DNA of 64,000 bases, taken from the NCBI GenBank assembly GCA_036725105.1, contig DAIMET010000004.1, positions 7,719-71,718 on the forward strand. The letters run 5' to 3'. A program made the translations under genes and the position numbers. The number at the start of each line of letters is the position of its first letter. Within the stretch, counting starts at the first letter, position 1. Source of the stretch: Calditrichota bacterium (GTDB lineage: Bacteria; Caldisericota; Caldisericia; UBA6126). The notes under the pieces are model-generated. The model saw only the letters and a list, made by a program, of their open reading frames with translations. It was not told where the DNA came from and ran no database searches. Below, piece by piece: positions 10,170-24,107 of this stretch.

Positions 10170-10287
<118 letters not shown>

Positions 10288-10448: not shown

Positions 10449-10988
10449 ATGAAAAAGAATCATGATCGAAAAGAAGCGTTTACATTAGTAGAGTTGTTAA
10501 TCACCATTGGGATCATTGTTATTATTGCTGGTGTTGCAGTACCTCAAATTGCAGGGTATTTGAACAGAAGCAAATCCGCTAGAGCAAAGATGGATTTATC
10601 AACTATTTCGACAGCGATTAAATGTTTTTATACAGATTGGGGTCGTTATCCTGCTTCATTGGAAGATCTGTTAGGAACTGACACATCTCTAGATGCCGTA
10701 AACACATCTGATAATTATACCGTAGCAGGATTACCCGGTGGAATAAACTATCTTGGTGTTACAATCCCTGCTGATATTTTTAATCAAGCCAGCTCAGAGA
10801 ATACTTATAAGTACCTTCTATTTACCGGTGACCAAGACTATATCTTGTGGTCGATCGGCCCCAACAAAGAATCAGAAATTACAGAGCAGACAGCAGCATT
10901 ATCAGATGATGCTGTTACGATTACTACAACAGAAGAATTCGACGATATCTATGATTCCAACTGTTCTGTATCCGTTGCAATTTCATAG
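10449..10988 (+). CDS. Type IV pilin / GspG-ComGC-like major pseudopilin
   Basis: ATG 10449 after GAGG; KEA|FTLVELLITIGIIVIIAGVAVP N-methylation motif; SKSARAKMDLSTISTAIKCFYTDWGRYP is GspG-like. Confidence 0.9.
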   Translation: MKKNHDRKEAFTLVELLITIGIIVIIAGVAVPQIAGYLNRSKSARAKMDLSTISTAIKCFYTDWGRYPASLEDLLGTDTSLDAVNTSDNYTVAGLPGGINYLGVTIPADIFNQASSENTYKYLLFTGDQDYILWSIGPNKESEITEQTAALSDDAVTITTTEEFDDIYDSNCSVSVAIS

Positions 10989-11017
10989 CAATCTTTTTAC
11001 CGTAGCATATTGAGAAA

Positions 11018-11500
11018 ATGAACCTCCTTTTCATTTCTAGGAAACCAGGGTTTACTTATTTTGAAACCCTGGTTTCCGTATTCTGTATTCTGATTTTTGT
11101 AACTGGATTTCAAAAATGGATGCTATATTCTGTTTCCCAAAAAACAACTATTCATATTCAACAAAAACTAACTGAAACATCTCACTGTATCACGACGTTG
11201 CTTCAAAATTCCAATACCAGTTGGATTCAGGACGAAACTTTCAATCCTACACCCCTTCATTATCGATTCTTAACGCAGGATGCAATGAGTACAATACCCA
11301 TACCATTGATGAGTGCAAATTCTTTCTTGAAAATTTCTTTACCCACCGATATCACCCAATTGCCCTACAGTCTTATCATATCGAAATCTACTGCAGAATA
11401 CTATCAAACTGAGTACACCCTTTATCATGTAATCGTTTTTGATACTACAAACACACAACATTCCGCCATTTCTACGTTTATCAAGAAAACTGCCACATGA
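11018..11500 (+). CDS. Minor pilin (prepilin-type cleavage motif)
   Basis: KPG|FTYFETLVSVFCILIFV. Confidence 0.75.
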   Translation: MNLLFISRKPGFTYFETLVSVFCILIFVTGFQKWMLYSVSQKTTIHIQQKLTETSHCITTLLQNSNTSWIQDETFNPTPLHYRFLTQDAMSTIPIPLMSANSFLKISLPTDITQLPYSLIISKSTAEYYQTEYTLYHVIVFDTTNTQHSAISTFIKKTAT

Positions 11501-11979
11501 AGTTATTATCAAAGCAGTTAACTTGTTTCAGTACTATTGAAACATTAGTAAGTGTTGCGATATGCAGTATGATTCTTTTTCCTATTGGAGTATGGATTCA
11601 ACATTCTTCTCATCTCTACTACCAACAAACAAAAGAAAACTCTGTCCGTCTAGACGTTTTATTCTTACTCGAAGATATCGAAACCCATTGGATGCAGTTT
11701 TATTATGAGCCAGATGCAATCAGACCCAAAGAGGGAATCACAGAACAGGCTTTGTTCTTTAAAACCACAGATCAAAGGCTTGTACGTTACTATTCAAAGG
11801 GAAATGAAGTTGGTAGAGATATCAATTACAGTACATTTCAGAATCTGACACAAAAGGTTGTGAAGAGATTCAAAGTGACCAGGTGTTATGATGGTCAATA
11901 TGGGCAAATCCAGATTTGTATTGAAGATATTCTTGGAAGAAAGTACAACAAGCTATTATGCTTTCAACTACCTTCTTGA
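11497..11979 (+). CDS. Minor pilin (GspJ/ComGF-like)
   Basis: LTC|FSTIETLVSVAICSMIL; ATGA overlap with the previous gene. Confidence 0.7.
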   Translation: MKLLSKQLTCFSTIETLVSVAICSMILFPIGVWIQHSSHLYYQQTKENSVRLDVLFLLEDIETHWMQFYYEPDAIRPKEGITEQALFFKTTDQRLVRYYSKGNEVGRDINYSTFQNLTQKVVKRFKVTRCYDGQYGQIQICIEDILGRKYNKLLCFQLPS

Positions 11980-12551
11980 TGACAATGAATTCATTATCTA
12001 CGAATCAGAAAAACTTAAAAAATGCTTTTATTCTCCCAATTTCATTTTTTATCATTACATTGCTTTTAGTTGTAGCCATTTACTTTATGCATCAAACCAT
12101 TCGAAATCAGCATATGCTCCATGCTACTGTAAATCAAGTGAAATTGGATCAGGGAAAAGAGATTGGTGAAAAAGTTTTATTGGATCTGTATGCAAACCAG
12201 GGTCGCGAAATATTGAAAAACAGGATATCGCAGGAACCAAAGATTTATGTAAGAAGTAATCCTATTTACCCCGAAGATATGGCAATCGTTTTCTCTTTTA
12301 TAGATGAGACGTCTACAAAGTGTATTGTGCAAATGTCTATTTTCCTCTTAAAATCGGAAGAAAAAGGAATTCTTACACATCCTCTATTGCGAGTTCCTTT
12401 ATATGTGAATGCCTACCGAAAATGCTATGTTTTATCTCATCAATACATCTCTTCCTACTTTTTAACCATGAAGTATACTATTTCAACAGAAGAAGAGACC
12501 GACGGAAATATTCTTAACAAAGAAATTGTGAAGATTTACTACAATGGGTAA
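11958..12551 (+). CDS. Minor pilin-like protein (PilX/ComGG-like)
   Basis: KNA|FILP followed by a hydrophobic helix without E5; position in the pilin cluster. Confidence 0.55.
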   Translation: MLSTTFLMTMNSLSTNQKNLKNAFILPISFFIITLLLVVAIYFMHQTIRNQHMLHATVNQVKLDQGKEIGEKVLLDLYANQGREILKNRISQEPKIYVRSNPIYPEDMAIVFSFIDETSTKCIVQMSIFLLKSEEKGILTHPLLRVPLYVNAYRKCYVLSHQYISSYFLTMKYTISTEEETDGNILNKEIVKIYYNG

Positions 12552-13140
12552 GATTTTATTGTTAGCAATTCTTCTACTTTTCTCAGTTGAAGATATACGA
12601 TTCAAGAGTATTTCAGAGAAATGGTTTTGGGGATTAACAGGATTTGTTATTCTTTCGCTTCTTGTGCCACCTTTACAGATACATCTAGACCAGCATTTAG
12701 TAGTACCTTTGGATCTGAAGAACTTCTTAATCATGCATACGGGTGCTAGTTTTTTTGAAGAGTTTGTGAAAAGTCTTTTAGATGGTTTTTTTTCTTTTCG
12801 CTACTTTCACAGTTTATCTGGTACACCCTGGTTTACTAACATAGTGAACCTTATATCTAGAGCAGGAGTTGGATTCCTGCTATTATACATCCCCTATTTG
12901 ATCACAAGAAAAAAAAGTCTAGGAGAGGGTGATATTTTTTATTTCACACTCATTTCATGTTTGTTTCCAATATCCATCATATGGTTATCGTATTTTTTAG
13001 CTTTTTTTTCAGGTTGTTTCTTGTTTCTCTTTCTTATCATCTTGATTCCTGAAAAAAAACGAAAGAATCTTTGTTCCTACAAGATTCCCTTTATTCCTTT
13101 TCTTTCCCTCGGTTTTGTGATTGGTCTGTTTTTTCAATGA
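12544..13140 (+). CDS. A24 prepilin peptidase (no N-terminal Zn/methylase domain)
   Basis: SVEDIR and LGEGDI catalytic Asp motifs; C-terminal IPFIPFLSLG. Confidence 0.85.
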   Translation: MGKILLLAILLLFSVEDIRFKSISEKWFWGLTGFVILSLLVPPLQIHLDQHLVVPLDLKNFLIMHTGASFFEEFVKSLLDGFFSFRYFHSLSGTPWFTNIVNLISRAGVGFLLLYIPYLITRKKSLGEGDIFYFTLISCLFPISIIWLSYFLAFFSGCFLFLFLIILIPEKKRKNLCSYKIPFIPFLSLGFVIGLFFQ

Positions 13141-13712
13141 AAATCCAAAAAAATCGTCGGTTTCGTGCACACATCCTTTTTGAAATCTTTTTTTGGATGG
13201 CAATGATCATAATTTTAAGCGGTTCTTTTGTTTCACTTTCAAATGAAGTATTACAGCAAAGACAATTAGATTCTTCCATTTGTACCCTCGTAGAAGATCT
13301 TCAGTTGCTTCGAATGAAATCAATAGCTACCCACCAGGACTTACGCATCATGTTTTATCCAACAAAAAACACATATGTATTTGAAACTGAAGAAAATGGT
13401 CTAAATATACCAGGAAAATTTGTACAGAGAGTTTTTCCGAAAAATATCGGCTACCCATATTACTTTGGAGTTTACACTCCTTCTTACGTTGATGAATGGG
13501 GAAATATCTGCTCTGGATCTGTAGAATTTGGTTATAGTGGGTCTCCGTTGCTTCCACGTAAGTTAACCTTTAAACATACGGGAACTCCTTCGTGTGGAGG
13601 TCACATTATTCTCACATCCTATCCGGATTTTCGAAGTAGTGTTGTCATTGTAAAGGTCGCAACGGGCAGAATTAGAGTAGGACGTGTTACTTTTGCCCCA
13701 ATGGAACCATGA
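13137..13712 (+). CDS. Minor pseudopilin (GspH/FimT/ComGD-like)
   Basis: ATG 13137 (ATGA overlap); FRA|HILFEIFFWMAMIIILS; C-terminal VKVATGRIR typical of FimT/GspH. Confidence 0.7.
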   Translation: MKIQKNRRFRAHILFEIFFWMAMIIILSGSFVSLSNEVLQQRQLDSSICTLVEDLQLLRMKSIATHQDLRIMFYPTKNTYVFETEENGLNIPGKFVQRVFPKNIGYPYYFGVYTPSYVDEWGNICSGSVEFGYSGSPLLPRKLTFKHTGTPSCGGHIILTSYPDFRSSVVIVKVATGRIRVGRVTFAPMEP

Positions 13713-13830
13713 CAAAATCGAAAATTCGGAAATTCTTTACCAATTCGTCATTATTTCTCGGAAAAAATCCATATAATTAGTAATACTCATATATCTTTTT
13801 TATAAGGCGACCTTTTTAATGGAGGTTTAT

Positions 13831-14343
13831 ATGACAAAAAGCGGTAAAGTACTTTTTGCGACTATTGTATGCATTGTTTTAGCTGGTTTTGTGTTTTCTT
13901 CTCCGATGTTGCAACTTTTCTACCAAGATGCTGAACCCTTCAAGTTTTTTGGCTATGAATTTGCAGCTGAATTCGATCCCATTAAGATCGCTTCTGTGAA
14001 AGATATTCCGGACGGAACAGGGCATTCCTTTAGCGTAAAACTTGATCTCCCCTTTGCTGGTCCTCAATATGTCCGCCAAGATATTTATGGGATCATAACA
14101 CATATTGACGGCGATTTCCATGCATATAGTGCAGTATGTCCACACCTTGGATGTATTGTAAGATGGGATGAAGACCAAAACCCTGAACAAAGAATATGGT
14201 GTAATTGTCACAGTGGAGCTTTTAATCCATCCACTGGCGATGTAACAGCAGGACCTCCACCAAGAGGATTGCCAGTGTACACGATTTATGTTGAAGGAGA
14301 TGATATTTACCTAGAAAGCATCAAAGAAGAAGGTGCACAATGA
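13831..14343 (+). CDS. Membrane-anchored Rieske [2Fe-2S] protein
   Basis: GGAGGT RBS then ATG 13831; N-terminal TM; CPHLGC and CNCHSGAF boxes; GPPPRGL. Confidence 0.93.
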   Translation: MTKSGKVLFATIVCIVLAGFVFSSPMLQLFYQDAEPFKFFGYEFAAEFDPIKIASVKDIPDGTGHSFSVKLDLPFAGPQYVRQDIYGIITHIDGDFHAYSAVCPHLGCIVRWDEDQNPEQRIWCNCHSGAFNPSTGDVTAGPPPRGLPVYTIYVEGDDIYLESIKEEGAQ

Positions 14344-15347
14344 GAGATATCCAACCAAAAGCAGTATCCTATCTAAACAATCCCTTTTACTATTTGGGAG
14401 GGATCACCTTCATCTTCCTTGTATTCCAGGTTTTATCGGGAACATTTTTGTTTATGAACTTTGTTCCAGCTATAGGCGGAGCTTATAATACACCAATCCC
14501 AGGTGCCTATGGTTCTCTTGTTTATATCACGAACACTCTACCATTTGGCGTATATCTACGAACTTTTCACCGATTTGCAGCCATGGGAATGCTTCTATTT
14601 GCTATTCTTCACTTGATTCGTATGTGGACTACTAACAAAGTGTCTAAACCCAGAAATCTTGGGTGGATCAGTGGTTTAGTGCTAGTATTTTTCGTGGTAG
14701 TGATCATTTTTACTGGTTTTTTATCTTCATACACCCCGCAATTTGAAGCTATGCTCATGAAATGGGCAGAGTTTTTTGATTATGGCCGTCGAGAATACCA
14801 GAATTTGTTGTCTGCAAATTTTGGACTTCATCTCTTACTGCCCATTTTGATTTTGATTGGTCTCATTATTCATTTCAAAAGAATTGCCAGACCAAAAATA
14901 ACACCACCTCTTTCGCTTATTTTATTCATTACTGGGATACTCATTTTATTGACCGCATTGTTTCCCATTCCATTTTTACCCGAAGAGCCTGTTGCATTCG
15001 AAGGAACCATTCCCACTTTTATGCAACAGATGTCAGTGTTGATCATCTTTTTAGGAATTTGCGTCCTCCTTGCCTTTTTACCAATGATTCTTCGACGAAA
15101 GCAGCTTTTTGCGAAAGTCGATCAAATTCGATGTACGGGCTGTCTATATTGTGTCGATGTTTGTCCGAAAAAAGCAATAAAACCCATCACGAAAGGAACC
15201 AGAGTTGTAGCATTCGTTGATGAATCCAAATGCCAGGGATGCGGAATATGCGAAGGTACATGTCGATCTCTTGCAATCCAGATCTACAATGATCCCTCAA
15301 AATCTACTTTAGAGGAGGTTCGAGCAATATGGCTAACAAAGAATTAG
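14340..15347 (+). CDS. Cytochrome b (four His heme ligands, no PEWY) fused to a C-terminal 2x[4Fe-4S] ferredoxin domain
   Basis: H77/H91 and H164/H178 with 14-residue spacing; CTGCLYCVDVCP and CQGCGICEGTC. Confidence 0.9.
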   Translation: MRDIQPKAVSYLNNPFYYLGGITFIFLVFQVLSGTFLFMNFVPAIGGAYNTPIPGAYGSLVYITNTLPFGVYLRTFHRFAAMGMLLFAILHLIRMWTTNKVSKPRNLGWISGLVLVFFVVVIIFTGFLSSYTPQFEAMLMKWAEFFDYGRREYQNLLSANFGLHLLLPILILIGLIIHFKRIARPKITPPLSLILFITGILILLTALFPIPFLPEEPVAFEGTIPTFMQQMSVLIIFLGICVLLAFLPMILRRKQLFAKVDQIRCTGCLYCVDVCPKKAIKPITKGTRVVAFVDESKCQGCGICEGTCRSLAIQIYNDPSKSTLEEVRAIWLTKN

Positions 15348-15724
15348 TATACCTTTTCCCATGCCTCGCAGAAAAAAGAAAAAAACTCATCCAAGAACTC
15401 ACCAAAAAGTACTCTTCGATCAAAGTTGTACCAATAATTTGTGCGGGTCGCTTTAATACTAGTTTAGCTCTAAAACTTATACATGAAGGAGCAAAAGGGG
15501 TGATTGTTTTAGGCTGCGAACCCGGAGATTGTCATTATCGAGAGGGAGCTGTCTTTTCTGAAAGGCGCTTTCTCCTTGCAAAGCATACACTAAAGGCCTT
15601 CGGTCTGGAAGAAGATCGATTTCAGGCATTGTGGCATAAACCTTCGGATGTGAAACATACTATGAAAGAAGTAGAACAGTGCATGAAGCTCTTATCTGAT
15701 CTAGACGAAGAGGGGGCGAAATAA
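15329..15724 (+). CDS. mvhD: MvhD/FlxD-like [2Fe-2S] subunit
   Basis: PC..VPIICAGR..GAKGVIVLGCEPGDCHY MvhD signature. Confidence 0.9.
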   Translation: MANKELVYLFPCLAEKRKKLIQELTKKYSSIKVVPIICAGRFNTSLALKLIHEGAKGVIVLGCEPGDCHYREGAVFSERRFLLAKHTLKAFGLEEDRFQALWHKPSDVKHTMKEVEQCMKLLSDLDEEGAK

Positions 15725-16716
15725 TGAAAACCCAAATTGAAAAAAACATAAAGCAGCTCTTAAACGAAATGTGGAAACCAGGAGACCTGGCTCTAGCATG
15801 GAAAAAAGCTTCTTTGCCTGGACACCGAATTCCTGCTTTCATTACACAAAAAGAAGAGATTCAAGACATCATTTACGATTCTTTTTGTGATCTTTCATTG
15901 GCGAAATATGTCAATTCTTTTAATCGTAAAGAGATTTTACCTCCCACATTTAAAGGAAAAATCCATATTGTTTGCAAACCATGTGATGCAAAATCAGTAA
16001 TGCAAGCATTTGCAGATGAGCAAATTTCTGAAGAAATGATCAATTTAATTGTAGTTGCTTGCGATGGCATCATCGACCTAACCAAAATTGAAAAGGAATG
16101 TGAAAAAGCTATTGAAAGCTATCAAGAAGAAGATTATGTGATTGTTTGCAAAGATATTGATGGAAACGAACATCGCTTTGATAAGAGAGAGTATTGGCTG
16201 AGAAAATGTGCTGATACACGGAACTGCGATTTCCCATTTTATTACGGTTATTACTTTGTTGGTAACGAAAAAGAATACAAAAAGCGTATCAAGCACTACC
16301 GCAGTAATTGGAGAACTTTACCACAGGATACCATGTCACCCAAAGAACTACGAAACATGATTCACCAAGAGTTGCAGCGATGCATACGCTGTAATGCTTG
16401 CCGAAACATCTGTCCAGCCTGTTTCTGTTCTGATCAGTGTATATTTGACAAACCAAAAGAAAACGTGAACCTTCTTGACATCGATACATCCACAGAGAAT
16501 ACAATTTTGTATCACATGATACGTTTTCACCATGTAGCACCAAACTGTACCGGCTGTGGAGAATGCGAAAGAGCATGTCCAAGAAATATCCCATTACATA
16601 TTTTTTATGAGTATTTCAACCGATTAATGGAAGAAGAATTTGGTTACCAACCTGGTAAGACAAACGACGAAAGACAAAAGCTTCTTTCTTACAATCTAGG
16701 CGAAGACTTGGTTTAA
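15724..16716 (+). CDS. FlxC/FdhB(FrhB)-like 4Fe-4S subunit
   Basis: VCKPCD..VVACDG; RCIRCNACRNICPACFC; CTGCGECERACP. Confidence 0.8.
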   Translation: MKTQIEKNIKQLLNEMWKPGDLALAWKKASLPGHRIPAFITQKEEIQDIIYDSFCDLSLAKYVNSFNRKEILPPTFKGKIHIVCKPCDAKSVMQAFADEQISEEMINLIVVACDGIIDLTKIEKECEKAIESYQEEDYVIVCKDIDGNEHRFDKREYWLRKCADTRNCDFPFYYGYYFVGNEKEYKKRIKHYRSNWRTLPQDTMSPKELRNMIHQELQRCIRCNACRNICPACFCSDQCIFDKPKENVNLLDIDTSTENTILYHMIRFHHVAPNCTGCGECERACPRNIPLHIFYEYFNRLMEEEFGYQPGKTNDERQKLLSYNLGEDLV

Positions 16717-16725
16717 GGAGGAATC

Positions 16726-17769
16726 ATGAGAAAGAGATTAAAAATTGATCAATTCAAACCCTTTCTACAGGAATTGCAAAAACAGGCTACTCTGATTGCT
16801 CCTGTAAAAACTGAAACCAATGAGCGTGAATTCATGGTAGTACAAGATAACACCAATGTCGCATTGGAGGGATTTAATCCACTTCGCTCCCCGAAGGAGT
16901 TCATATTTCCACAAATGGAAAAGATGTTTGAGTATCATATCCAAAAAGATGGAAAAGCTACTATTAAAGAATCAATTCAAAAAGAACCACAAATTATCCT
17001 AGGTGTGCGCCCCTGTGATTTACATGCAATATCGTATATGCAAGAGTTTTACTCTTCCACCCACGAAGACCCCTATATCCTTGAAAAATTGGATTCGACG
17101 GTTATCATTGGGTGGGCATGTCAAGACCCTATGAATACATGTTTTTGTACTTCTGTTGGAGATTCCCCTGTAGACACAAAAGGTGCGGACATAATGATGG
17201 CTAAAACAGATCAATTTTATTTAATTGAAGTCCTTACCGCTAAAGGGAAAAAAGTGTTTGAAGCAGTTGAATCCCTTCTAGACGAATCTCTTGCAGAAGA
17301 TGATGAAATATACCCCATGATTCGTCGCAATACAGAATCCAAAATCCGAGAGAAAGTAGATCTTCTTTCCGTAAAGGGACGTATTGGGTCAGTGTATTCG
17401 TCTAGTTTTTGGAAAACGTATAGCGATACCTGCATTGCTTGTGGAAGCTGCACTTTTAACTGTCCAACTTGTACTTGTTTTGACACCTCTGACTCACTGG
17501 ACACTTGCCAAGATGGTTGCCGATATCGCACATGGGATACATGCCAAAATTATGCATTTACATTGCATGCTTCGGGTCACAATCCACGAGCAACTCGATT
17601 ACACCGTCTGCGTCAGCGAGTTATGCATAAATTTCATTATTCGGTAGAACAACTCGGTCTCTTTTCTTGTACTGGGTGTGGACGATGCACTCGATCATGT
17701 CCTGTTCGAATCGATATGGTTTCGATCATTAAAGATATCAAGGAGGCAGTTGATCATGGAGAAAAGTAA
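16726..17769 (+). CDS. FlxB/AsrA-like 4Fe-4S subunit
   Basis: GVRPCD; CFCTSVG; CIACGSCTFNCPTCTC; RLRQRVMHKF; CTGCGRCTRSCP. Confidence 0.87.
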   Translation: MRKRLKIDQFKPFLQELQKQATLIAPVKTETNEREFMVVQDNTNVALEGFNPLRSPKEFIFPQMEKMFEYHIQKDGKATIKESIQKEPQIILGVRPCDLHAISYMQEFYSSTHEDPYILEKLDSTVIIGWACQDPMNTCFCTSVGDSPVDTKGADIMMAKTDQFYLIEVLTAKGKKVFEAVESLLDESLAEDDEIYPMIRRNTESKIREKVDLLSVKGRIGSVYSSSFWKTYSDTCIACGSCTFNCPTCTCFDTSDSLDTCQDGCRYRTWDTCQNYAFTLHASGHNPRATRLHRLRQRVMHKFHYSVEQLGLFSCTGCGRCTRSCPVRIDMVSIIKDIKEAVDHGEK

Positions 17770-18643
17770 AAAAATGACAACTACATCACAAAATGAATAT
17801 CTCCCATTTTATGCCCTTATACGAGAAGTAGGTCAACAAACATCCACAGTAAAGCATTTTTGGGTAGAATTACCCAAAGACAAAATTCCAAAAAAATATG
17901 TTCCTGGACAGTTTTATCAACTCTCCCTTCCTGGTGTTGGAGAAGTACCAATATCCATCTCAGACTATGATCCGAAGGCTAATGCTCTTCTTTTTTGCAT
18001 CGCCAAAACGGGCGTTGTAACTAACAAAATTCATGAACTAAAAGAAGGAGAGTATCTAGGACTTCGTGGTCCCTATGGAAACGGCTTTCCAATGGATACT
18101 TTCCAAGGAAAGAACATTGTGGTCGTTGCAGGTGGAATTGGATTAGTTCCTTTGCGAAGCGTTATTGAAGAGTATTTTCGAAATCCTGACAAATATGGTG
18201 AATTGGAAATTTTGTATGGAGCTAGAAATTCCAATGAAATTGTATACAAAGAAGAAATGAAACAGTGGCGACTGAAGAAAAAAACAACCTGCAAAATAAC
18301 CATTGATAAGCCTGAAAAAGGATGGGATGGAAACACGGGTTTTGTGTGCAATCTTGTAGACCAATCTTATTGCGATTGCAGCGAAGTTCTGTTCCATGGG
18401 AATTCATCCGATCGAAGCAACACCGTAGTGTTGGTTGTAGGTCCACCTGTAATGTTTCAATCTATTTTAGATCAATTGTCCTCTATTCAATTTCCAGATG
18501 ATTCTGTTTTTGTATCCCTAGAGAATCACATGAAATGCGGAATTGGAAAATGCGGTCATTGCAACTGCGGTGGCAAATATGTTTGCCAAGATGGTCCCAT
18601 TTTTTCCTGGAAAGAATTGAAATCCATGGAAAAAGAGTACTAG
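17756..18643 (+). CDS. FlxA/AsrB-like FAD/NAD(P)-binding [2Fe-2S] subunit
   Basis: AGGAGG RBS then ATG 17756; PGQF, GEVPISI, RGPYGNGF, AGGIGLVP, VVGPPVM, MKCGIGKCGHC..CQDGP. Confidence 0.9.
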   Translation: MEKSKKMTTTSQNEYLPFYALIREVGQQTSTVKHFWVELPKDKIPKKYVPGQFYQLSLPGVGEVPISISDYDPKANALLFCIAKTGVVTNKIHELKEGEYLGLRGPYGNGFPMDTFQGKNIVVVAGGIGLVPLRSVIEEYFRNPDKYGELEILYGARNSNEIVYKEEMKQWRLKKKTTCKITIDKPEKGWDGNTGFVCNLVDQSYCDCSEVLFHGNSSDRSNTVVLVVGPPVMFQSILDQLSSIQFPDDSVFVSLENHMKCGIGKCGHCNCGGKYVCQDGPIFSWKELKSMEKEY

Positions 18644-18652
18644 GAGGAAGAT

Positions 18653-19804
18653 ATGTCTGTACAATCGAGCACATGGCAAAAAATAACCTACTGGTTGAAA
18701 AATCGATTTCGCAATATGGATATTTTTGACGAGACGCTGCAACCAAAGCACCCTCGAAATCCTGCTTATTGGATTGGTGGGATGTTATATCTTGGTTTGC
18801 TAATTCAGATATTACTTGGTTCGATATTAGCAATTTACTATATTCCTTCTTTTGAAATGGCTTACCGAAGTGTTGAATCAATCATGCAACTGCAATTGTT
18901 TGGAGTTCCAATTGGACCATGGCTACGTGGTTTTCACCGATATTTAGCAGATGCCATAATTATCCTAGCAATGCTTCGTGTTTTTCGCCTTTATTTTGCT
19001 GCTGATCACAAGAAACCACATGAATTTACATGGTTTTGGGCTGTTTTATTCGTTGTCATCACAACCGTATTTGGTTTCAGCGGATACATACTTCCCCTGG
19101 ATCAACGTGCATATTGGGCCACAACTATTGGAACCACAATGCCCACTTTTGTGGACGAACTACCACTGCTGGGCAATTTACATTTAGGGAACTTTTTACA
19201 GTTTATTGCTCGAGGTTCGGTTGTAATCTGCACGAACACCATTACACGTTTTTACGCTCTTCACTATGTCTTGCCTGTTGGCATTGTTGTGTTAGCAGAG
19301 TCGTATTTCTACTTCTTCCGTAAAAAAAGAGTGAATCTTCCTGCTTTAGGGGTGATACTGCTATTTGCTATTGTGATTGCATGGCAAATTCTCGAACCGG
19401 CTCATTCCTTAGCTCCTGCAGATCCCTCATCCCCTCCTGAGCACATTCTACCTGATTGGTATTTCTTGTTTGTTTACTATTTCCTTAAGATAATGAACTT
19501 TTTATGGGGAATTCTGTTTAATGTCATCTTTTTAGTGTTTGTCATTCTGATGCCATATATTGAAAGGAATCATTTTAGAAAACCATCGAAAAGACCTTTG
19601 TGGAATTCTCTTCTTGTTTTAGGCTATGCACTCTTCATTATTCTTTCATGGAGAGCTGCTGCTTATTCGGAATCAGAAGTGTTGCGCGCTGATATTCCTT
19701 GGATTTTCGGTGCATATATTGTGTTTATTCTTGTATTTGGCTGGTGGCAAAAGAAAGTAGATCAAAATGAAAAAAGAAAAGGCGAGTTGGTTCATCAGAA
19801 ATAG
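18653..19804 (+). CDS. Second cytochrome b (long form) with Qo motif PDWY, lacking both heme bH His ligands
   Basis: H95 and H204 kept; R109 and Y218 at the bH His positions; GYILPLDQRAYWA; P267DWY. Confidence 0.9.
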   Translation: MSVQSSTWQKITYWLKNRFRNMDIFDETLQPKHPRNPAYWIGGMLYLGLLIQILLGSILAIYYIPSFEMAYRSVESIMQLQLFGVPIGPWLRGFHRYLADAIIILAMLRVFRLYFAADHKKPHEFTWFWAVLFVVITTVFGFSGYILPLDQRAYWATTIGTTMPTFVDELPLLGNLHLGNFLQFIARGSVVICTNTITRFYALHYVLPVGIVVLAESYFYFFRKKRVNLPALGVILLFAIVIAWQILEPAHSLAPADPSSPPEHILPDWYFLFVYYFLKIMNFLWGILFNVIFLVFVILMPYIERNHFRKPSKRPLWNSLLVLGYALFIILSWRAAAYSESEVLRADIPWIFGAYIVFILVFGWWQKKVDQNEKRKGELVHQK

Positions 19805-20063
19805 CACATGGTTTTTTTGGGTAGCCCTTGTGCCAGCGGTTGTTCTTGGTAATGTTATTTTTCTTAGAATTCAACTATTGGCTCGTTTCGGTTTCCAAAC
19901 TACCCATTTTATCATGTTGCTATTTAGCTCACTGTTGTTTCTAGCACTTCTCCTTTTTCTTTGTTTTATCATCTACGTGCATGACTCGTTGAATGGAAAT
20001 ATCAAAAGACGATTGTCATGGTTTGATTCCTGGATCCAAAAATGGCATTTGGAGGAAGACTGA
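19767..20063 (+). CDS. Small 2-TM hypothetical protein
   Basis: 98 aa, two hydrophobic helices, overlaps the cytochrome b stop. Confidence 0.6.
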   Translation: MKKEKASWFIRNSTWFFWVALVPAVVLGNVIFLRIQLLARFGFQTTHFIMLLFSSLLFLALLLFLCFIIYVHDSLNGNIKRRLSWFDSWIQKWHLEED

Positions 20064-20064
20064 T

Positions 20065-20277
20065 ATGAAAAAAATTGAAAATATGCTGTCCATTCTGTCG
20101 TATGTATTTCTTGTATGTATTGTAATTTTGCTGGGCTTGTGTTCACACTACCACATTATTAATGACCAAAGAATGGTTGTTATTTGCTCTGGTTTGATAT
20201 TGATTCTTTTTGGTATTGTGTTCACACTAGAAACAAAACTAAAGTGGTTGGAGAGTGAAAAAAGATCATTAAAATGA
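20065..20277 (+). CDS. Small 2-TM hypothetical protein
   Basis: GGAGGA RBS then ATG 20065; 70 aa; ATGA overlap with the next gene. Confidence 0.65.
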   Translation: MKKIENMLSILSYVFLVCIVILLGLCSHYHIINDQRMVVICSGLILILFGIVFTLETKLKWLESEKRSLK

Positions 20278-22985
20278 AGCTACATCGTTTCATAGCTTTT
20301 GTTTTTTTATGTTGCCTGATCACAGGGTCGTCCCTTTCTCTTCCTGCAGTCGAAGGAAAGGATAGTCTTTCGATTGAACCGTCCTCTGTTTCTTTTTCCA
20401 TAACAACGACCCAACGCGATACAAAAGCGATTTTACTCACCAACCAATCATCTGAGTCCATACAATTTTCAGTCGTTAAGCAAGCTACTGAAAAAAGCAG
20501 TTCAACTGAAATATTACCATCCTTTCATGGAGATGCACCACAGGAAGTAGGTTCTCCCTGGGTTACTCCTCAATACAATTTTGCCAGAACGGGTTACAAT
20601 CTTATCGAATCAACGTCACCACCTTTTGAACAAAAATGGCGATCAACCTATACAAAAGCTTTGCTTCCCCCTGTTTTATCGGGTAACAACTTATACTTAC
20701 CCTCCGAAGATGGGAGAATTCATCACCTGCATTGTAGGACCGGTGTCAAAGAAGAAATGTTTCATATGGGCGAAGCTCTTTACTCTGTTCATCTATATAC
20801 GCGTTACCTCATTGTAGCTACTAACACAAATCTTGTCCTATTTGATCGAATTGCCAAACAGGTGATTTGGACTCGACCTTACTTTGTTCCAAGCATGTAC
20901 GGCGTTGCAGCTTGGGAGGGCCTGTTGTTTATAGGGACACAGACTAAACTTATCTGTTTGGATCTTATCACTGGACGAGAGATATGGTACAAGCCAGGAT
21001 TATGTGAATACATCTCAACTGATCAAGGGGTTGTAGCAGCTGTGTTGGATTCTTCAACACTTTTTATTGCGCGCGGACAATCTGGAAATGAGATTGTTTC
21101 GATTTCTACTCAAGAAATTTTTACAGGTCCCGCCGTTTTTACCCAGGACAATTTGTATTACTGTACTACTCAACAAGACCTGAAAAAAAGTCATGTTGTT
21201 CGATTTTCGTTAGACGGAAAAAAGCAGTGGGAATACATACAAGAAAACTATATTCCTTCTTCTCTAGCTGTAGACGATCAACATGTGTATTTCTGTACAA
21301 ATCAGGGAGATGTGGTTGCTCTTGAACGTTTCTCTGGGAAGAAGCAGTGGGAAAAAAACATCCATTCCCCCATCCTGATCCCACCTATCGTAGCGTGGAA
21401 TTCCATTTATATAGGCGGAAACGACGGTGCAATCCATTGTTTTAACCGAAATAATGGTACAGACATTTGGAACTACAAAATGTCTTTTCCTCTCAATTCA
21501 CCTTTTGTTATGGCGCAAGGTTTTTTGTATTTTGCCGACAATACTGGGAATTTTTATGCCTTTTGTCGCATTGGAGAAAATGTTCTTCCCCCTTATGCTC
21601 CTGCACGCGTCAAGGGCTATCCTGGAAATCAAAAATTTGTGTTAAGCTGGGAAATTGAGCAGCCAAAACCAGATTTAGCAGGTTTTCATATTTATCGAAA
21701 GAAAGAATTTGAACGTGATTTTTCATTTATAGACAAAACGGATATTGTCAGTTTTTATGAAGATAGTCCCCTTGAGAATGGAGAGAAAGTCAGCTATATT
21801 GTTCGAGCATTTGATACATATGGCAATGAAAGCACCAGCTCCAATATGGTCACGGGTATACCTTCTCAAGATCCAACACCAACCTGGCTTGATTATGTTC
21901 CGACATCCGGTAGTATTAAGCCAAACGATTCGGTCATCCTTACGGTTAAGGTTGATGGCTCTAAGGTTCCCCCTGGTGAATATCATGCTGAACTTGTACT
22001 ACTTTGCTCCCATCTTCCACCCAATGAGAATACAATTCATATTCCTGTATCCATGAAGACATCAAAAGGAGATTCTTCTATTCTTCAGCCTCCTTCTCTT
22101 GAGACAATTACAAGTTCTGACACCAGAGCGTTGCTGAAGTGGAGGAAGTATCCTGCAATATGGTCCATATATGTGTATCGCTCCACGGTGTCTCAAGATG
22201 AAATGGTGCGAATTGCTTCCGTAAGAGGAACTGAAGAGCAATATATTGACGATACCGTCCAAAATGGTGTAATGTATTATTATTCCCTAAAAGCAGTATC
22301 TGAAGATGGTTTATTGAGTGACTTTTCCAACGAGCTTTCTATTGTTCCTATGCCAGCTTCACTCCAAATTTTAAAAGAGAATAGTATTACTGTTTTTCAT
22401 CCAGTTTTTGATATACAGGGGAAAGCAGACCCGAAAGCCAAACTCACTGTACAAGGCCATCCCATTGAGTTAAAAGCTGATGGAACTTTTACCACTCCTC
22501 TCGGAGTACCAGTTGGAATCAGCACTCTTTTCTTCCAGGCTATTGCAACAGATCAGACTGTACAAGAAAAAAAGATAGAAGTGAATTGCATCTCTGAATC
22601 CTATACCATCAAAATGCAGATTCAAAATCCAAATGTAACTGTGAATGATCTTCCATGGCCCTGGGCATTAGAAGCACCCCCTATACTGGAATCTCAAAGA
22701 ACCTTTGTGCCCTTGCGCTTTATTAGTGAAATTGTAGGGGGGTCTGTTCTGTGGGATTCGGAAGAAAAAAGAATTCAAGTTTTGTATAAACAAAACGAAG
22801 TAGTATTATGGATAGGGAAAAGAGAAATTTTAGTCAATGGCAAAAAAGAAAAAATTGATGCTCCGCCATTCATTTTGAACGGTCGCACACTTGTACCATT
22901 GCGATTTGTTACCGAGCCATTGGGAGCAAAAATTGAGTGGAAAGCTGAAACTCGTACAATTTTACTTTCTTTCCATTTTACTTAA
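20274..22985 (+). CDS. Secreted PQQ-like beta-propeller + fibronectin III + copper amine oxidase N-terminal (stalk) domain protein
   Basis: Signal peptide; repeated G..W propeller motifs; two FN3-like GFHIYR/IYVYR segments; C-terminal RTFVPLRFISE..RTLVPLRFVTEPLGAKIEW. Confidence 0.85.
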   Translation: MKLHRFIAFVFLCCLITGSSLSLPAVEGKDSLSIEPSSVSFSITTTQRDTKAILLTNQSSESIQFSVVKQATEKSSSTEILPSFHGDAPQEVGSPWVTPQYNFARTGYNLIESTSPPFEQKWRSTYTKALLPPVLSGNNLYLPSEDGRIHHLHCRTGVKEEMFHMGEALYSVHLYTRYLIVATNTNLVLFDRIAKQVIWTRPYFVPSMYGVAAWEGLLFIGTQTKLICLDLITGREIWYKPGLCEYISTDQGVVAAVLDSSTLFIARGQSGNEIVSISTQEIFTGPAVFTQDNLYYCTTQQDLKKSHVVRFSLDGKKQWEYIQENYIPSSLAVDDQHVYFCTNQGDVVALERFSGKKQWEKNIHSPILIPPIVAWNSIYIGGNDGAIHCFNRNNGTDIWNYKMSFPLNSPFVMAQGFLYFADNTGNFYAFCRIGENVLPPYAPARVKGYPGNQKFVLSWEIEQPKPDLAGFHIYRKKEFERDFSFIDKTDIVSFYEDSPLENGEKVSYIVRAFDTYGNESTSSNMVTGIPSQDPTPTWLDYVPTSGSIKPNDSVILTVKVDGSKVPPGEYHAELVLLCSHLPPNENTIHIPVSMKTSKGDSSILQPPSLETITSSDTRALLKWRKYPAIWSIYVYRSTVSQDEMVRIASVRGTEEQYIDDTVQNGVMYYYSLKAVSEDGLLSDFSNELSIVPMPASLQILKENSITVFHPVFDIQGKADPKAKLTVQGHPIELKADGTFTTPLGVPVGISTLFFQAIATDQTVQEKKIEVNCISESYTIKMQIQNPNVTVNDLPWPWALEAPPILESQRTFVPLRFISEIVGGSVLWDSEEKRIQVLYKQNEVVLWIGKREILVNGKKEKIDAPPFILNGRTLVPLRFVTEPLGAKIEWKAETRTILLSFHFT

Positions 22986-22997
22986 AGAGGTAATACA

Positions 22998-24107
22998 ATG
23001 ATAATACAATGTAAAAAGAATGACCTGAGTACTATTTTGCAGGAAATGATCACCGTGATTCCTTCTAGTTCTTTAGTTCCTATACTCAACTGTTTTCATT
23101 TTTCCGTGAAGAATCAGCAGATTACCATAACAGCCTCCGATTTAGAAATAGGTTTTACAAGTCATCTAGACTGTGAAGCTGATGGAGAAACAACGGTTGC
23201 GATTCCAGCCAAGCTTCTAACCGATATCGTAAAAAGTATGGACGAAGAGATTATTAAATTAGAATTTCAAGATTTGCATCTAACCATCTATGGGCAAACT
23301 AGCCATTTTTCGATTCATTGTATCAATCCAGATGAATTCCCATCATTACCCGAAGTAGTTGGTACTGCTTATGAAGTCCCGATTAGTAAGCTCATTTCGT
23401 TATATAACAAAGTTTCTCCAGCTGTCTCTCAGAAAATGGAAGGAAATCTGAATCTGCACTGTATTCCGTTACAATCAGACGGTCACGAACTACGTATGAT
23501 TGCCTCAGATGCACAACGACTTGTTGTGGCCAAAACCATTGAAGAGAAGGACTATGATACGATTCGCGTTCTTACTCTTCCCAAAGTGTTTAAAATTTTG
23601 TCCCGTATCGCATTAAAAGCCCATACAGATACTATGAAAATGGTTGTAGCAGAGCGTGAGATCATGTTTTCTTTTGACAAACAAATTCTTGTATCTCGTT
23701 TAGTGGACTCTAACTTTCCTGATTACAACAAGGTAATACCAAAAGAATCATCGTACCGATTTATTGTGAATCGAGAAAAACTTCTTCATGCTTTACAGCG
23801 ACTTTACCTCGTAGTTCGAAATAATACCAGTCGTATCAGTATGAAATTAAAGGAAAACTCTGTTATGTTGATTGCCAATGATCCTGAAATAGGTTCTGGT
23901 GAAGAAGAGATTCCAGTGGAATATCTGGATCGTAGCGGAGAAGCTTGTGAAGTCCTTTTTGATGCCAGGTACATGATTGAGGGCGTAGAAGGTGTCGAAA
24001 CCAGTCTTGTAGAATACAATCTTCAAGGTTCTATTCATCCACTGGTTGTTAAAGAGCCTGAATCGGATAATTATCTCTATGTTTTGGTGACTATCCGGAT
24101 GAAATAA
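22998..24107 (+). CDS. dnaN: DNA polymerase III beta sliding clamp
   Basis: 369 aa; ITASDLEIG, ASDAQRL, SRLVDSNFPDYNKVIP, FDARY. Confidence 0.96.
   Translation: MIIQCKKNDLSTILQEMITVIPSSSLVPILNCFHFSVKNQQITITASDLEIGFTSHLDCEADGETTVAIPAKLLTDIVKSMDEEIIKLEFQDLHLTIYGQTSHFSIHCINPDEFPSLPEVVGTAYEVPISKLISLYNKVSPAVSQKMEGNLNLHCIPLQSDGHELRMIASDAQRLVVAKTIEEKDYDTIRVLTLPKVFKILSRIALKAHTDTMKMVVAEREIMFSFDKQILVSRLVDSNFPDYNKVIPKESSYRFIVNREKLLHALQRLYLVVRNNTSRISMKLKENSVMLIANDPEIGSGEEEIPVEYLDRSGEACEVLFDARYMIEGVEGVETSLVEYNLQGSIHPLVVKEPESDNYLYVLVTIRMK

Follow-up and report, generated by a model that had tools for sequence, protein, structure and literature searches.

In anammox bacteria, NAD(P)H is proposed to be generated by Rieske/cytochrome b complexes that bifurcate electrons (PMC12954380): quinol would be bifurcated, the low-potential electron passing to NAD(P)+ rather than to the quinone of the Qi site (PMC12954380; PMC5600118). 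These complexes (Kuste4569-4574 and Kustd1480-1485 of Kuenenia stuttgartiensis) share with the operon described here a gene set that joins a Rieske protein and a cytochrome b to a cytoplasmic iron-sulfur module that binds FAD and NAD(P). The anammox enzymes however have a canonical b6-type cytochrome b and subunit IV with haems bP, bN and cN, have been modelled as homodimers in which the dimer axis carries an additional haem, and comprise a single large Bfu/Nfn-like NAD(P) reductase, multihaem c-type cytochromes and a Rieske protein above +300 mV. The operon, in contrast, encodes a cytochrome b without haem bH, a second di-haem cytochrome b carrying an HdrA-type ferredoxin domain, an NAD(P) link made of MvhD and FlxCBA-like proteins, and no c-type cytochrome.

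FlxABCD-HdrABC, the NADH dehydrogenase/heterodisulfide reductase of Desulfovibrio and other anaerobes, is another close system: in L167-L169 (see below) a four-gene cassette of the same make-up and order comes after HdrA, and the interface between MvhD and the ferredoxin domain appears to be retained in the operon. HdrA, HdrB and HdrC are nevertheless missing from the operon; with a membrane-bound, haem-based partner, bifurcation, if any, would take place at a quinone site instead of the HdrA flavin. Cytochromes bc1 and b6f have in common with the operon the Rieske boxes and disulfide cysteines, the haem bL ligands, the P(D/E)WY Qo motif and small transmembrane (TM) subunits, but the operon lacks haem bH and cytochrome c1/f and contains an extra cytochrome b paralogue with iron-sulfur clusters. 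The beta and gamma subunits of Pyrococcus furiosus sulfhydrogenase I, like AsrAB, are full-length homologues of the g5 and g6 products, the pair being an NAD(P)H:iron-sulfur oxidoreductase; unlike these systems, the operon has no hydrogenase subunits and no AsrC, and all NCBIfam scores of g5 and g6 fall under the curated cut-offs. In QmoABC and HdrDE-type complexes, a di-haem membrane cytochrome b and iron-sulfur domains join the quinone pool to cytoplasmic HdrA/MvhD-type modules; this cytochrome b is of the NarI/HdrE type, with no Rieske protein and no Qo site, hence no quinone-based bifurcation.

Kao and Hunte (2014) devoted one sentence to a 'PDWF-FeS clade' of cytochrome b proteins with 4Fe-4S and MvhD domains in Turneriella parva and Magnetospirillum magneticum (PMC4122944). 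For these proteins, relatives of g2, no Rieske protein was reported in the gene cluster. In Melainabacteria, 'complex III/IV fusion' operons with petB/petC-like genes beside a cbb3-type oxidase were described (PMC6349859), and we find that they contain bH-less cytochrome b, g2-type and MvhD genes. Neither report mentions missing haem bH ligands, paired cytochrome b paralogues or an Flx/NAD(P) link (PMC4122944, PMC6349859). The earlier note on this DNA knew of no characterised architecture joining Flx/MvhD to a Rieske/cytochrome b module; likewise, we found no description of the operon architecture in the literature searched.

A nine-gene operon in Caldisericota

The operon lies at positions 13831-20277 of the window, the 64-kb stretch of DNA analysed, which comes from an uncultured anaerobe of the Caldisericota, and consists of nine closely spaced genes on the + strand (Table 1). 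The identities that had been read from the letters were borne out for all nine genes, by Pfam matches for g1 to g7 and by two predicted TM helices each for g8 and g9. Three open reading frames begin upstream of the likely starts: g1 opens at 13819 with an orthologue-conserved start (MTKSGK) at 13831, g6 opens at 17678 with a likely start at 17756 or 17774, and g9 opens at 19993 with a likely start (MKKIEN) at 20065. From g1 to g9 the junctions measure -4, -19, -1, +9, -14, +9, -38 and +1 nt, and g9 in turn shares 4 nt with the gene that follows, g10. Tight coupling of the run thus holds, the largest gap being 9 nt, but the earlier description of overlaps or gaps of 10 nt or less does not, some overlaps being larger (e.g. 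-38). In the window lineage, a conserved type IV pilin-like cluster lies upstream of the operon and a gene for a secreted 903-aa protein downstream.

Table 1. Position and predicted products of the nine operon genes in the window.
Gene	Position	Strand	Predicted product	Family match
g1	13831..14343	+	Rieske [2Fe-2S] protein, N-terminal membrane anchor	PF00355, E 1.3e-11
g2 (b')	14340..15347	+	di-haem cytochrome b-ferredoxin fusion	PF00033 + Fer4 families / Fer4 dicluster
g3	15329..15724	+	MvhD/FlxD-type [2Fe-2S] adaptor protein	PF02662 FlpD, E 1.3e-22
g4	15724..16716	+	FlxC-like iron-sulfur protein, FdhB/FrhB-type fold	Fer4_8
g5	16726..17769	+	FlxB-like iron-sulfur protein (HydB/AsrA family)	Fer4_22, 4.1e-30
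g6	17756..18643	+	FlxA-like FAD/NAD(P)-binding protein, C-terminal [2Fe-2S] site	NAD_binding_1 2e-17, DHODB_Fe-S_bind 3.6e-10
g7 (b)	18653..19804	+	full-length cytochrome b, 8 predicted TM helices	PF00033 2.5e-32, PF00032 2.1e-13
g8	19767..20063	+	small membrane protein, 2 predicted TM helices	no family match above threshold
g9	20065..20277	+	small membrane protein, 2 predicted TM helices	no family match above threshold

CxxCH cytochromes c, hdrABC, a hydrogenase large subunit and AsrC had all been noted as absent. Indeed, none of the nine operon proteins contains CxxCH, and no Hdr, hydrogenase or AsrC protein was found among the 30 other window ORFs scanned against Pfam; the 15 ORFs of at least 110 aa that lay outside the scan are all under 360 aa, a length that rules out HdrA and a hydrogenase large subunit but would accommodate HdrB or HdrC.

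At least 19 species of Caldisericota keep the gene order, in two genomic settings that differ in the genes on either side, one of them that of a second Caldisericota lineage; the order is also kept in relatives of the window down to 38-56% protein identity. The earlier note had made its reading depend on synteny of the Flx and Rieske/cytochrome b genes in relatives, and this order was found in 19 of the best 80 GTDB loci retrieved with the cytochrome b. In every Caldisericota locus seen (19/19 type I loci) the Flx genes lie between both cytochrome b genes. The arrangement is not due to chance. In GTDB, 322 loci carry a core formed by the Rieske protein, the bH-less cytochrome b, the cytochrome b-ferredoxin protein and MvhD; beyond Caldisericota (Armatimonadota, Acidobacteriota, Melainabacteria and others), this core comes with c-type cytochromes and no Flx genes. 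The core is a widespread module and the Flx-linked form is its Caldisericota version.

The two cytochromes b and the iron-sulfur chain

The g7 product retains the haem bL ligands (H95 and H204) and the PDWY Qo motif, and P/S-D-W-Y with its surroundings (ILPDWYF) is invariant or nearly so across phyla. Where the second histidines of helices B and D would be, R109 and Y218 are found, along with an invariant E216. The pattern H-[RK]-H-E-[YFHR] characterises all members of the bH-less clade examined (42/42), versus H-H-H-x-H in all canonical sequences (38/38): the histidine pair of haem bH is replaced in all these clade members (the full-length cytochrome b having Arg and Tyr/Phe instead) and in none of the 38 canonical relatives. 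Judged by these residues, the bc-type quinol-oxidising module of the operon has lost its inner haem and its quinone-reduction site; with no haem bH there would be no Qi site and no Q cycle. All loci of bH-less cytochromes b that are long enough to judge also contain a g2-type gene.

Besides a di-haem cytochrome b domain of four helices, the g2 protein has two further TM helices and a 2x[4Fe-4S] ferredoxin domain in the cytoplasm; the total of six predicted TM helices would place this domain on the N side. Its only four histidines (H77, H91, H164 and H178) and eight cysteines are invariant in 18 homologues and also in 28 distant ones. Residues 255-320 match the C-terminal ferredoxin domain of HdrA (5odc_A 574-633 and 7bkb_A 592-655), as well as positions 568-640 of NCBIfam HdrA2; on sequence grounds, the two domains are homologous. 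MvhD feeds electrons to HdrA through this C-terminal ferredoxin domain (PMC9012536), and g3 matches the MvhD chains of Hdr complexes (8rvu_F, 1.9e-16; 5odc_D, 3.4e-15). The g2-type protein and MvhD are fused into one polypeptide in many organisms. The g2 profile retrieves 320 cluster representatives at E<1e-30, most of them 480-790 aa long (g2 has 335 aa); of the seven long g2-type forms scanned, three were found to contain FlpD, as was P0025. In type II loci that extend far enough, MvhD adjoins the g2-type gene (by BLAST, MvhD in about 26/61).

The C-terminal half of g4 matches FdhB of the Fdh-Hdr-Fmd complex (7bkb_E, 8.7e-19), and the best Foldseek matches of its AF2 model (pLDDT 85.6) were 7bkb_E (1.5e-16, TMq 0.69), 8rvu_E and then FrhB, a predicted fold shared with FdhB, which belongs to Hdr-MvhD supercomplexes. 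Over its full length, g5 matches sulfhydrogenase I beta of P. furiosus (9nez_B, 3e-46; NCBIfam ShyB 3e-57 and AsrA 3e-45, both under curated cut-offs), and g6 matches sulfhydrogenase I gamma (9nez_C, 9.1e-53) and PyrK, its best NCBIfam models being sulfhydrogenase gamma and AsrB (4e-64), again under cut-offs. Homologues of g4 with ~30% identity occur on three unrelated contigs (L167-L169) in clusters ordered HdrC-HdrB-HdrA-FlpD-[g4 homologue]-Fer4_22-NAD_binding_1, which argues that the MvhD-FlxC-FlxB-FlxA genes of the operon are the cassette that follows HdrA elsewhere; the Flx assignment is founded on these homologues in Hdr-Flx-type clusters. The architecture proposed from the letters, with a Rieske/cytochrome b module in place of HdrABC beside the Flx cassette, is supported by these clusters, by the HdrA-type ferredoxin domain of g2 and by the position of the Flx genes between both cytochrome b genes.

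The Rieske protein g1 has one predicted TM helix and its translation reads CPHLGC and CNCH at the cluster-binding boxes. In Caldisericota, Armatimonadota and Melainabacteria, the gene immediately after the cytochrome b is a small one weakly similar to g8, with no conserved His or Cys among the g8-like proteins. g9 is kept in the window lineage and other lineages have a second small gene at the same position; g8 and g9 may be structural subunits.

Electron path and alternative readings

We propose, with a probability of roughly 0.55, that the products of the nine genes assemble into one membrane complex, a quinol:NAD(P)+ oxidoreductase that bifurcates electrons at a single Qo site and has no Q cycle, and in which a wire leading out to (or in from) the cytoplasm takes the place of the haem bH/Qi half. 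PDWY is correlated with menaquinone and with Rieske proteins of low potential (PMC4122944), and this motif suggests menaquinol as the substrate. Menaquinol would be oxidised at the Qo site that g7, with its PDWY motif and haem bL, makes up together with the Rieske protein g1; both parts are present. One electron would pass through the Rieske cluster to a high-potential acceptor encoded outside the operon. The other would reach haem bL of g7 and, because haem bH is missing, continue to the two haems of g2, most likely within a g7/g2 heterodimer arranged like the cytochrome b homodimer, with bL-to-bL transfer. It would thus arrive at the g2 ferredoxin domain on the cytoplasmic side, as topology and homology indicate, and from there travel through the MvhD [2Fe-2S] cluster, the FlxC-like and FlxB-like clusters and the FlxA-like [2Fe-2S]/FAD centres to NAD(P)+, an order suggested by the Hdr/Flx precedent, by fusions and by the sequence of the genes. 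The chain can probably run both ways: when quinol is oxidised, quinone-based bifurcation would yield NAD(P)H and membrane potential without a Q cycle, and in reverse NAD(P)H would reduce quinone jointly with a donor on the Rieske side.

Three observations count against this proposal. First, the energetics are unfavourable: with menaquinol at about -74 to -80 mV and NAD+ at -320 mV, reduction of NAD+ needs an acceptor above about +170 mV, and driving an electron against the membrane potential adds to the cost. PDWY-type Rieske proteins usually reach only about +120 to +200 mV (PMC4122944), and an acceptor above +170 mV is not obvious in an anaerobic-digester organism. Second, no electron acceptor or donor for the Rieske protein was found in or beside the 19 type I loci, where CxxCH occurs only inside FeS proteins. 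Third, the twin-arginine motif is absent from g1 in all eight loci of the window lineage, leaving no evident route for export of the folded domain; an RR pair is present in the Rieske proteins of all other lineages examined (the second Caldisericota lineage, Melainabacteria and Armatimonadota).

The second of these observations would be accommodated if the enzyme were a non-bifurcating NAD(P)H:quinone oxidoreductase, an unlikely scheme. Both electrons of NAD(P)H would then run via Flx, MvhD and the ferredoxin domain and haems of g2 to the P side, where the g7 site would reduce quinone with one electron from haem bL of g7 and the other from the Rieske cluster, which the P-side haem of g2 would re-reduce in place of cytochrome c1, so that no external partner is needed. 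That no type I locus has a Rieske partner, where type II relatives have c-type cytochromes, fits this scheme, as does the exergonic transfer from NADH to menaquinone. The Flx module of Flx-Hdr systems is also usually described as an NADH dehydrogenase (reportedly by Ramos et al. 2015). On the other hand, P-side reduction by outward-moving electrons would dissipate membrane potential in a reaction that needs no help, we know of no precedent for direct transfer between a Rieske cluster and a haem b, and the strict joint conservation of an intact Qo motif and a disulfide-type Rieske protein would be unaccounted for.

We consider it improbable that the operon merely co-transcribes two separate enzymes, an ordinary Rieske/cytochrome b quinol oxidase and an FlxABCD serving HdrABC or another partner encoded elsewhere. 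While FlxDCBA cassettes normally accompany HdrCBA, and the search for hdr genes covered the 64-kb window of the genome, (i) in all 19 type I loci the flx genes stand between the two cytochrome b genes and reading frames overlap, (ii) MvhD accompanies the g2-type cytochrome b, often as a fusion, in phyla with no Flx genes nearby, (iii) g2 carries the HdrA domain that docks MvhD and (iv) without haem bH, g7 cannot be an 'ordinary' Q-cycle enzyme. Very improbable is a quinone-free transmembrane conduit with a vestigial Qo-like pocket, delivering NAD(P)H electrons through the b haems and the Rieske protein to an extracytoplasmic acceptor, a reading which the pilin-like cluster and secreted protein flanking the operon might favour but which is disfavoured by the near-invariant Qo sequence, by the different flanking genes of the second Caldisericota lineage and by a polyprenyl synthase gene near 30 of the 61 type II loci, which points to a quinone.

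The quinol:NAD(P)+ oxidoreductase thus remains our preferred reading. The proposed wiring, in which electrons leave a bH-less module by way of another cytochrome b and a chain of iron-sulfur clusters and end at a flavoprotein that binds NAD(P)H, appears to be undescribed and, if this reading is true, the operon enzyme would be an analogue of the anammox complexes, differently built.

A closely packed operon and its co-inheritance in Caldisericota

The operon consists of nine reading frames, g1 to g9, whose successive junctions measure -4, -19, -1, +9, -14, +9, -38 and +1 nt. Pfam and NCBIfam confirm each domain that the earlier note had named in them (see the table). The note had also claimed that hdrABC, hydrogenase, AsrC and CxxCH proteins are missing, and the analysis agrees: none of the nine proteins contains CxxCH, and a Pfam scan of 30 other ORFs of the window (15 ORFs of at least 110 aa, all below 360 aa, lying outside it) revealed no Hdr, hydrogenase or AsrC gene. 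A promoter and terminator scan over 13300-24300 gave counts not above those of shuffled sequence and is uninformative on the operon boundaries.

Features of the window, followed by example loci of the wider family
Feature	Position	Strand	Content
NuoF-like fragment and fusion	48-4530		NADH_4Fe-4S + Fer4 ORF, probably cut at the window edge, then a 1189-aa fusion (2Fe-2S domain, GltD-like Fer4_20/Pyr_redox_2 module, Nqo3-type ferredoxin domain, molybdopterin oxidoreductase domain)
rRNA operon	5382-10287		
Pilin-like genes	10296-13712		Type IV pilin/pseudopilin-like cluster, one prepilin-type N-terminus (FTLVELL)
Operon g1-g9	13831-20277	+	Nine reading frames
g1		+	Rieske
g2 (b')		+	Cytochrome b N-terminal domain + 4Fe-4S dicluster domain
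g3		+	FlpD/MvhD
g4		+	Fer4_8 protein
g5		+	Fer4_22 protein
g6		+	NAD_binding_1/DHODB_Fe-S_bind protein
g7 (b)		+	Cytochrome b, N- and C-terminal domains
g8, g9		+	Small membrane proteins, two helices each
g10	20274-22985		903-aa secreted protein overlapping g9 by 4 nt; PQQ_2 beta-propeller, BACON-like domain, two Cu_amine_oxidN1 repeats
dnaN, recF-like gene, DciA-like gene	22998-25598		dnaN directly after g10
Flip of coding strand	~28.9 kb	+ to -	
Maximum of cumulative GC skew	near 38-40 kb		Skew over 1-64000, climbing before and declining after
Sensory gene run	54404-60489	-	Response regulator, PAS/HisKA/HATPase kinase, two large PAS + PocR-domain proteins
ABC exporter pair	60621-63990		Adjoins the sensory gene run
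Long g2-type fusion, locus L141	7251-12144		
Long g2-type fusion, locus L010	212-5654		
Type II-like operon, locus L151	2945-11707		
Type II-like operon, locus L085	1-5814		

The g2 protein shares 97% identity with one encoded by a Caldisericia MAG of anaerobic membrane bioreactor origin, and its close relatives all belong to Caldisericia or Caldisericota MAGs. Seven Caldisericia species in GTDB keep the order g1-g9, g10, dnaN, with identities of 54-97% (tblastn with the window proteins), and the same gene order recurs on a JGI contig at ~47% identity and in four further species at 40-56%. A second Caldisericota lineage, with a cytochrome b that is 38-44% identical and has a long insertion in the A-B loop, shows the identical nine-gene order among different neighbours (an ABC transporter upstream, DprA downstream). 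When GTDB was scanned with an alignment of the g7 clade, 322 loci were returned, and 19 of the best 80 carry g1-g2-g3-g4-g5-g6-g7-g8 in this order, all of them from Caldisericia/Caldisericales (hereafter type I loci). The operon is also carried by OY771555.1 and by the 2.17-Mb contig JAXGMQ010000001.1. The co-occurrence of cytochrome b, MvhD and Flx-type genes that the earlier note had pointed to is a matter of synteny in the 19 loci. Scanning GTDB with the g2 alignment and ferredoxin-motif patterns gave 80 loci, most of which match only through the Fer4 domain of unrelated proteins; full-length matches were confined to Caldisericota. The g1-g9 block is therefore co-inherited and stays intact while its flanks vary, as expected for one operon encoding one complex.

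The pilin-like, g10 and dnaN flanks are kept to ~35-47% identity in one Caldisericota lineage and are missing in the second. The g10 protein was considered as a partner of the Rieske protein and rejected: it has no redox-cofactor motif, its quinoprotein dehydrogenase match is marginal and it does not occur in the second lineage. Elsewhere in the window, the 1189-aa fusion looks like a NAD(P)H-linked formate-dehydrogenase-like enzyme; the dnaN, recF-like and DciA-like genes lie beside the rRNA operon, and a replication origin or terminus may be situated near this region.

Two cytochromes b and the Flx cassette

The g2 protein has just four His: H77 and H91, H164 and H178. Within each pair the distance is 14 residues, as between the haem bL and bH ligands of helices B and D, and none of the four varies in 18 close or 28 distant homologues. 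All four haem ligands are present; the Qo half is absent. The four-helix bundle is followed by two further TM helices and then by a ferredoxin domain with eight invariant Cys. The two extra helices place this domain on the cytoplasmic side, together with the soluble g3-g6 proteins, which have neither a TM helix nor a signal sequence.

With its eight helices, g7 retains both bL ligands (H95 and H204) and a PDWY Qo motif; the motif is kept in all Caldisericota orthologues. The bH-ligand positions are occupied by Arg109 and Tyr218, with an invariant Glu216 just before the latter, so that of the four His which hold haems bL and bH in bc-type complexes only the bL pair is kept. In one alignment of 80 sequences, the pattern H-[R/K]-H-E-[Y/F/H/R] was found in 24/24 database proteins of the g7 clade and 18/18 Melainabacteria relatives, against H-H-H-x-H in 38/38 canonical cytochromes b. 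Because Phe and Arg at the bH positions are unable to ligate haem iron, g7 very probably carries a single haem (bL) and no Qi site. The operon thus resembles bc-type complexes in the Rieske boxes and membrane anchor of g1 and in the P(E/D)WY-type Qo motif of g7, and differs from them in lacking a full set of four haem ligands in g7, a c-type acceptor and, in the window's lineage, a Tat signal.

On the cytoplasmic side, g3 corresponds to FlxD, g4 and g5 to FlxC and FlxB, and g6 to FlxA. The g3 protein is of the MvhD type (PF02662, E 1.3e-22) and aligns with MvhD chains in Hdr complex structures. Full-length homology links g5 and g6 to the beta and gamma subunits, respectively, of P. furiosus sulfhydrogenase I, g6 having the FAD/NAD(P)-binding and [2Fe-2S] domains of FlxA (NAD_binding_1 and DHODB_Fe-S_bind; E 9e-53 to the gamma subunit). 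Their best family matches, sulfhydrogenase and AsrA/AsrB, all lie under the curated cut-offs (NCBIfam scores of 154.8 against 323 for AsrA and 216 against 288.6 for AsrB). As no catalytic subunit is encoded in the window ORFs scanned either, membership in AsrABC or sulfhydrogenase was rejected: the operon has neither an AsrC sirohaem protein nor [NiFe] hydrogenase subunits. For g4, the C-terminal half aligns with FdhB from the Fdh-Hdr-Fmd supercomplex; Foldseek, queried with the AlphaFold2 model of g4 (pLDDT 85.6), places FdhB (7bkb_E, E 1.5e-16, TMq 0.69) and, from Elp-Hdr, the FdhB-like subunit at the top, with FrhB next.

Full-length homologues of g4, with ~30% identity, occur on three unrelated contigs (L167-L169) in the order HdrC, HdrB, HdrA, FlpD, g4 homologue, Fer4_22 protein, NAD_binding_1/DHODB protein. 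The MvhD-FlxC-FlxB-FlxA cassette is consequently the same in both settings, and g3-g6 are identical in kind to the cassette that accompanies HdrA. The Hdr clusters and g1-g9 differ in what stands before MvhD. No type I locus contains an Hdr gene, so that the HdrABC association of FlxABCD was not found at these loci. Residues 255-320 of g2 are homologous to the C-terminal ferredoxin domain of HdrA (5odc_A 574-633, 7bkb_A 592-655, HdrA2 profile positions 568-640), the domain through which MvhD electrons reach the flavin in the Mvh-Hdr structure (PMC9012536). The proposal that the Rieske/cytochrome b module stands where HdrA normally does is hence supported at the level of domain homology.

Relatives without Flx genes

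Most of the best 80 g7-clade loci (61) are of a second type, without Flx genes (type II); their hosts are Armatimonadota, Holophagaceae, Solibacteraceae, Anaerolineae, Melainabacteria/Vampirovibrionales and several lineages with no finer name than bacteria. The genes are arranged as (di-haem cytochrome c)-Rieske-bH-less cytochrome b-small subunit(s)-g2-type-MvhD. Unlike type I loci, 52/61 have a CxxCH protein upstream, and the Melainabacteria operons begin with cbb3-type oxidase genes. FlxCBA homologues are near none of the 61, and no cytoplasmic partner of MvhD is encoded near these operons. A polyprenyl synthase gene lies ~4 kb downstream in 30/61, and CcmC/CcmE-like genes lie upstream in ~21/61. 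Type II-like operons (loci L131-L165 and L183-L249) have two small subunits with the bH-less cytochrome b. In type II loci of high GC, 'MvhD' ORFs of 340-536 aa were tried as fusions and rejected, being alternative-frame extensions that overlap g2. At each bH-less cytochrome b locus long enough to judge, a g2-type gene is present, and this constant pairing is the strongest comparative argument for joint function.

The g2 family extends further. A profile search of 1.8 billion representatives gave 320 clusters at E<1e-30 with matches spanning the whole fusion, many of them 480-580 aa or 630-790 aa long, compared with 335 aa for g2. FlpD was found in 3/7 long forms scanned; g2 and MvhD are thus fused in other organisms. 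In the longest forms MvhD is followed by an extra TM helix and then by a C-terminal domain whose fold is unknown, giving the layout cytochrome b N-domain, two TM helices, 2x[4Fe-4S], MvhD, TM helix, C-terminal domain. Long fusions, of 650-790 aa, occur at no fewer than 504 GTDB loci (among them L087-L166), in SAR324, Leptospiraceae/Turneriella, Nitrospirota, Nitrospinota, Aquificaceae, Thiotrichaceae and others. Their usual neighbours are a COX1-like haem-copper oxidase, a SCO1 protein and a UbiA-family (haem O synthase-like) gene, and also a small protein whose CxExCxxxHxxM motif is CuA-like. Among cluster representatives, P0168 has SCO1 fused at the N-terminus of the long form and P0153 a C-terminal CxxCH domain. 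The long fusions may be modules for electron input from the cytoplasm to an oxidase.

Parts of this family have been glimpsed before: two long proteins of this kind were recorded, without a Rieske protein, as the 'PDWF-FeS clade' (Kao and Hunte 2014, PMC4122944), and the Melainabacteria operons appear only under the name 'complex III/IV fusion', with petB and petC (PMC6349859). In the literature searched, which left most subscription journals outside, we found neither the bH-less cytochrome b nor its obligatory cytochrome b-ferredoxin-MvhD partner nor the Flx-linked form described, in line with the earlier suspicion that the Flx/MvhD architecture is uncharacterised.

A possible quinol-bifurcating mechanism and its meaning

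We propose, with a probability of roughly 0.55, that the operon encodes a quinol-bifurcating complex whose low-potential electron is sent to NAD(P)+. Quinol would be oxidised at the g7 Qo site together with the Rieske protein. As g7 has no haem bH, the bL electron would have no onward path inside it and would have to move to g2, most simply within a heterodimer by bL-bL contact, as in cytochrome b homodimers. From there it would cross the membrane over the g2 haems and pass through the ferredoxin domain, MvhD, FlxC, FlxB and the FAD of FlxA to NAD(P)+. A similar function has been proposed for two NAD(P)-linked anammox complexes (PMC12954380), which are built from other parts: they combine a b6-type cytochrome b and subunit IV (here an unsplit g7 without bH), a single large Bfu/GltD-like NAD(P) reductase (here MvhD and FlxCBA) and multihaem cytochromes c (here no haem c). 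The operon product would work like the anammox complexes with the wiring of Flx-Hdr systems; it belongs to neither class.

Our confidence goes no higher because the Rieske partner, the energetics, the Tat loss, the genome-wide gene content and the heterodimer geometry weigh as weak points. The g1 protein has the CxH...CxxH ligand boxes (CPHLGC and CNCH; PF00355) and is anchored by one TM helix. No c-type cytochrome or other CxxCH protein that could serve as its acceptor is encoded in the operon or in the 19 type I loci, and the CxxCH motifs of the second Caldisericota lineage, tried as c-type cytochromes, were rejected since they lie inside the FlxC- and FlxB-like FeS proteins. Caldisericota type I loci thus encode nothing to accept an electron from the Rieske cluster or to donate one to it. 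Moreover, the Rieske N-terminus (13819-13900 in the window) in the window's lineage reads MTKS[GS]KV in 7/8 loci and MRGISRSKG in the eighth (L009), with no RR in any, while the twin-arginine pair is kept in the second Caldisericota lineage (TRRELLK), in Melainabacteria (KRRTILK) and in Armatimonadota (DRRSLL). The motif has been lost in the window's lineage, which leaves the passage of a folded [2Fe-2S] domain to the outer side of the membrane unexplained.

As for the energetics, PDWY-type Qo motifs accompany menaquinone and low- to mid-potential Rieske proteins (PMC4122944). With menaquinone at ~-74 to -80 mV and NAD at ~-320 mV (PMC3578206, PMC4122944, PMC12954380), running the complex towards quinol oxidation takes an acceptor above ~+170 mV, and further driving force to push the electron against the membrane potential; for an organism of anaerobic digesters we cannot name such an acceptor. 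Run in reverse, the chain would let NAD(P)H and a donor on the Rieske side reduce quinone together, which is thermodynamically easy and of unclear benefit.

These difficulties frame the best of the alternatives, a NAD(P)H:quinone reductase that does not bifurcate; set beside the intact Rieske boxes and the Qo motif, it seems to us unlikely. That two unrelated enzymes are co-transcribed by happenstance is improbable: the Flx genes lie between the two cytochrome b genes in all 19 type I loci, and the g1-g9 block stays intact. A quinone-independent electron conduit, which would have the haem and FeS chain in common with our proposal and leave the PDWY motif aside, is slightly less probable still.

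Quinol bifurcation through g7 and g2, if true, would couple quinol oxidation directly to NAD(P)+ reduction, and a bc-type enzyme could run on one haem in its main cytochrome b by relying on the inter-monomer bL-bL route, which is optional in ordinary bc-type enzymes. Such direct coupling has, to our knowledge, so far been proposed for anammox bacteria only. We also know of only two established principles of electron bifurcation, one at the Qo site of bc complexes and one at flavins (HdrA, Etf, Nfn, Bfu); the operon unites signature parts of both, the Qo site and Rieske protein of the former with the MvhD/HdrA-ferredoxin/Flx wiring of flavin-based systems. Arguments on how b6f complexes and, in the cyanobacterial lineage, aerobic respiration arose draw on the Melainabacteria 'complex III/IV' operons; since these hold the same core, their plain petB/petC annotation would have to be revised.

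More tentatively, and at somewhat less than even odds, the family could be an architectural class of Rieske/cytochrome b enzymes in its own right, the third and so far unrecognised, with members in Caldisericota, Armatimonadota, Acidobacteriota, Melainabacteria and several unclassified bacterial lineages. Its heterodimer core, a bH-less Qo-bearing cytochrome b with a di-haem cytochrome b'-ferredoxin fusion, would export the low-potential electron via MvhD and have no Q cycle, and the Caldisericota form would name one cytoplasmic acceptor, NAD(P)+ via FlxCBA. The architecture is unexpected and widely spread; its function is one that we infer, and the predictions made by this compact system are sharp: it should contain three b haems and a single Rieske cluster and show activity linked to NAD(P)H. 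If the third class is real, it would be the quinone-based equivalent of HdrA and would stand near the 'cytochrome b plus cytoplasmic oxidoreductase plus Rieske' assembly that is the postulated ancestor of bc complexes.
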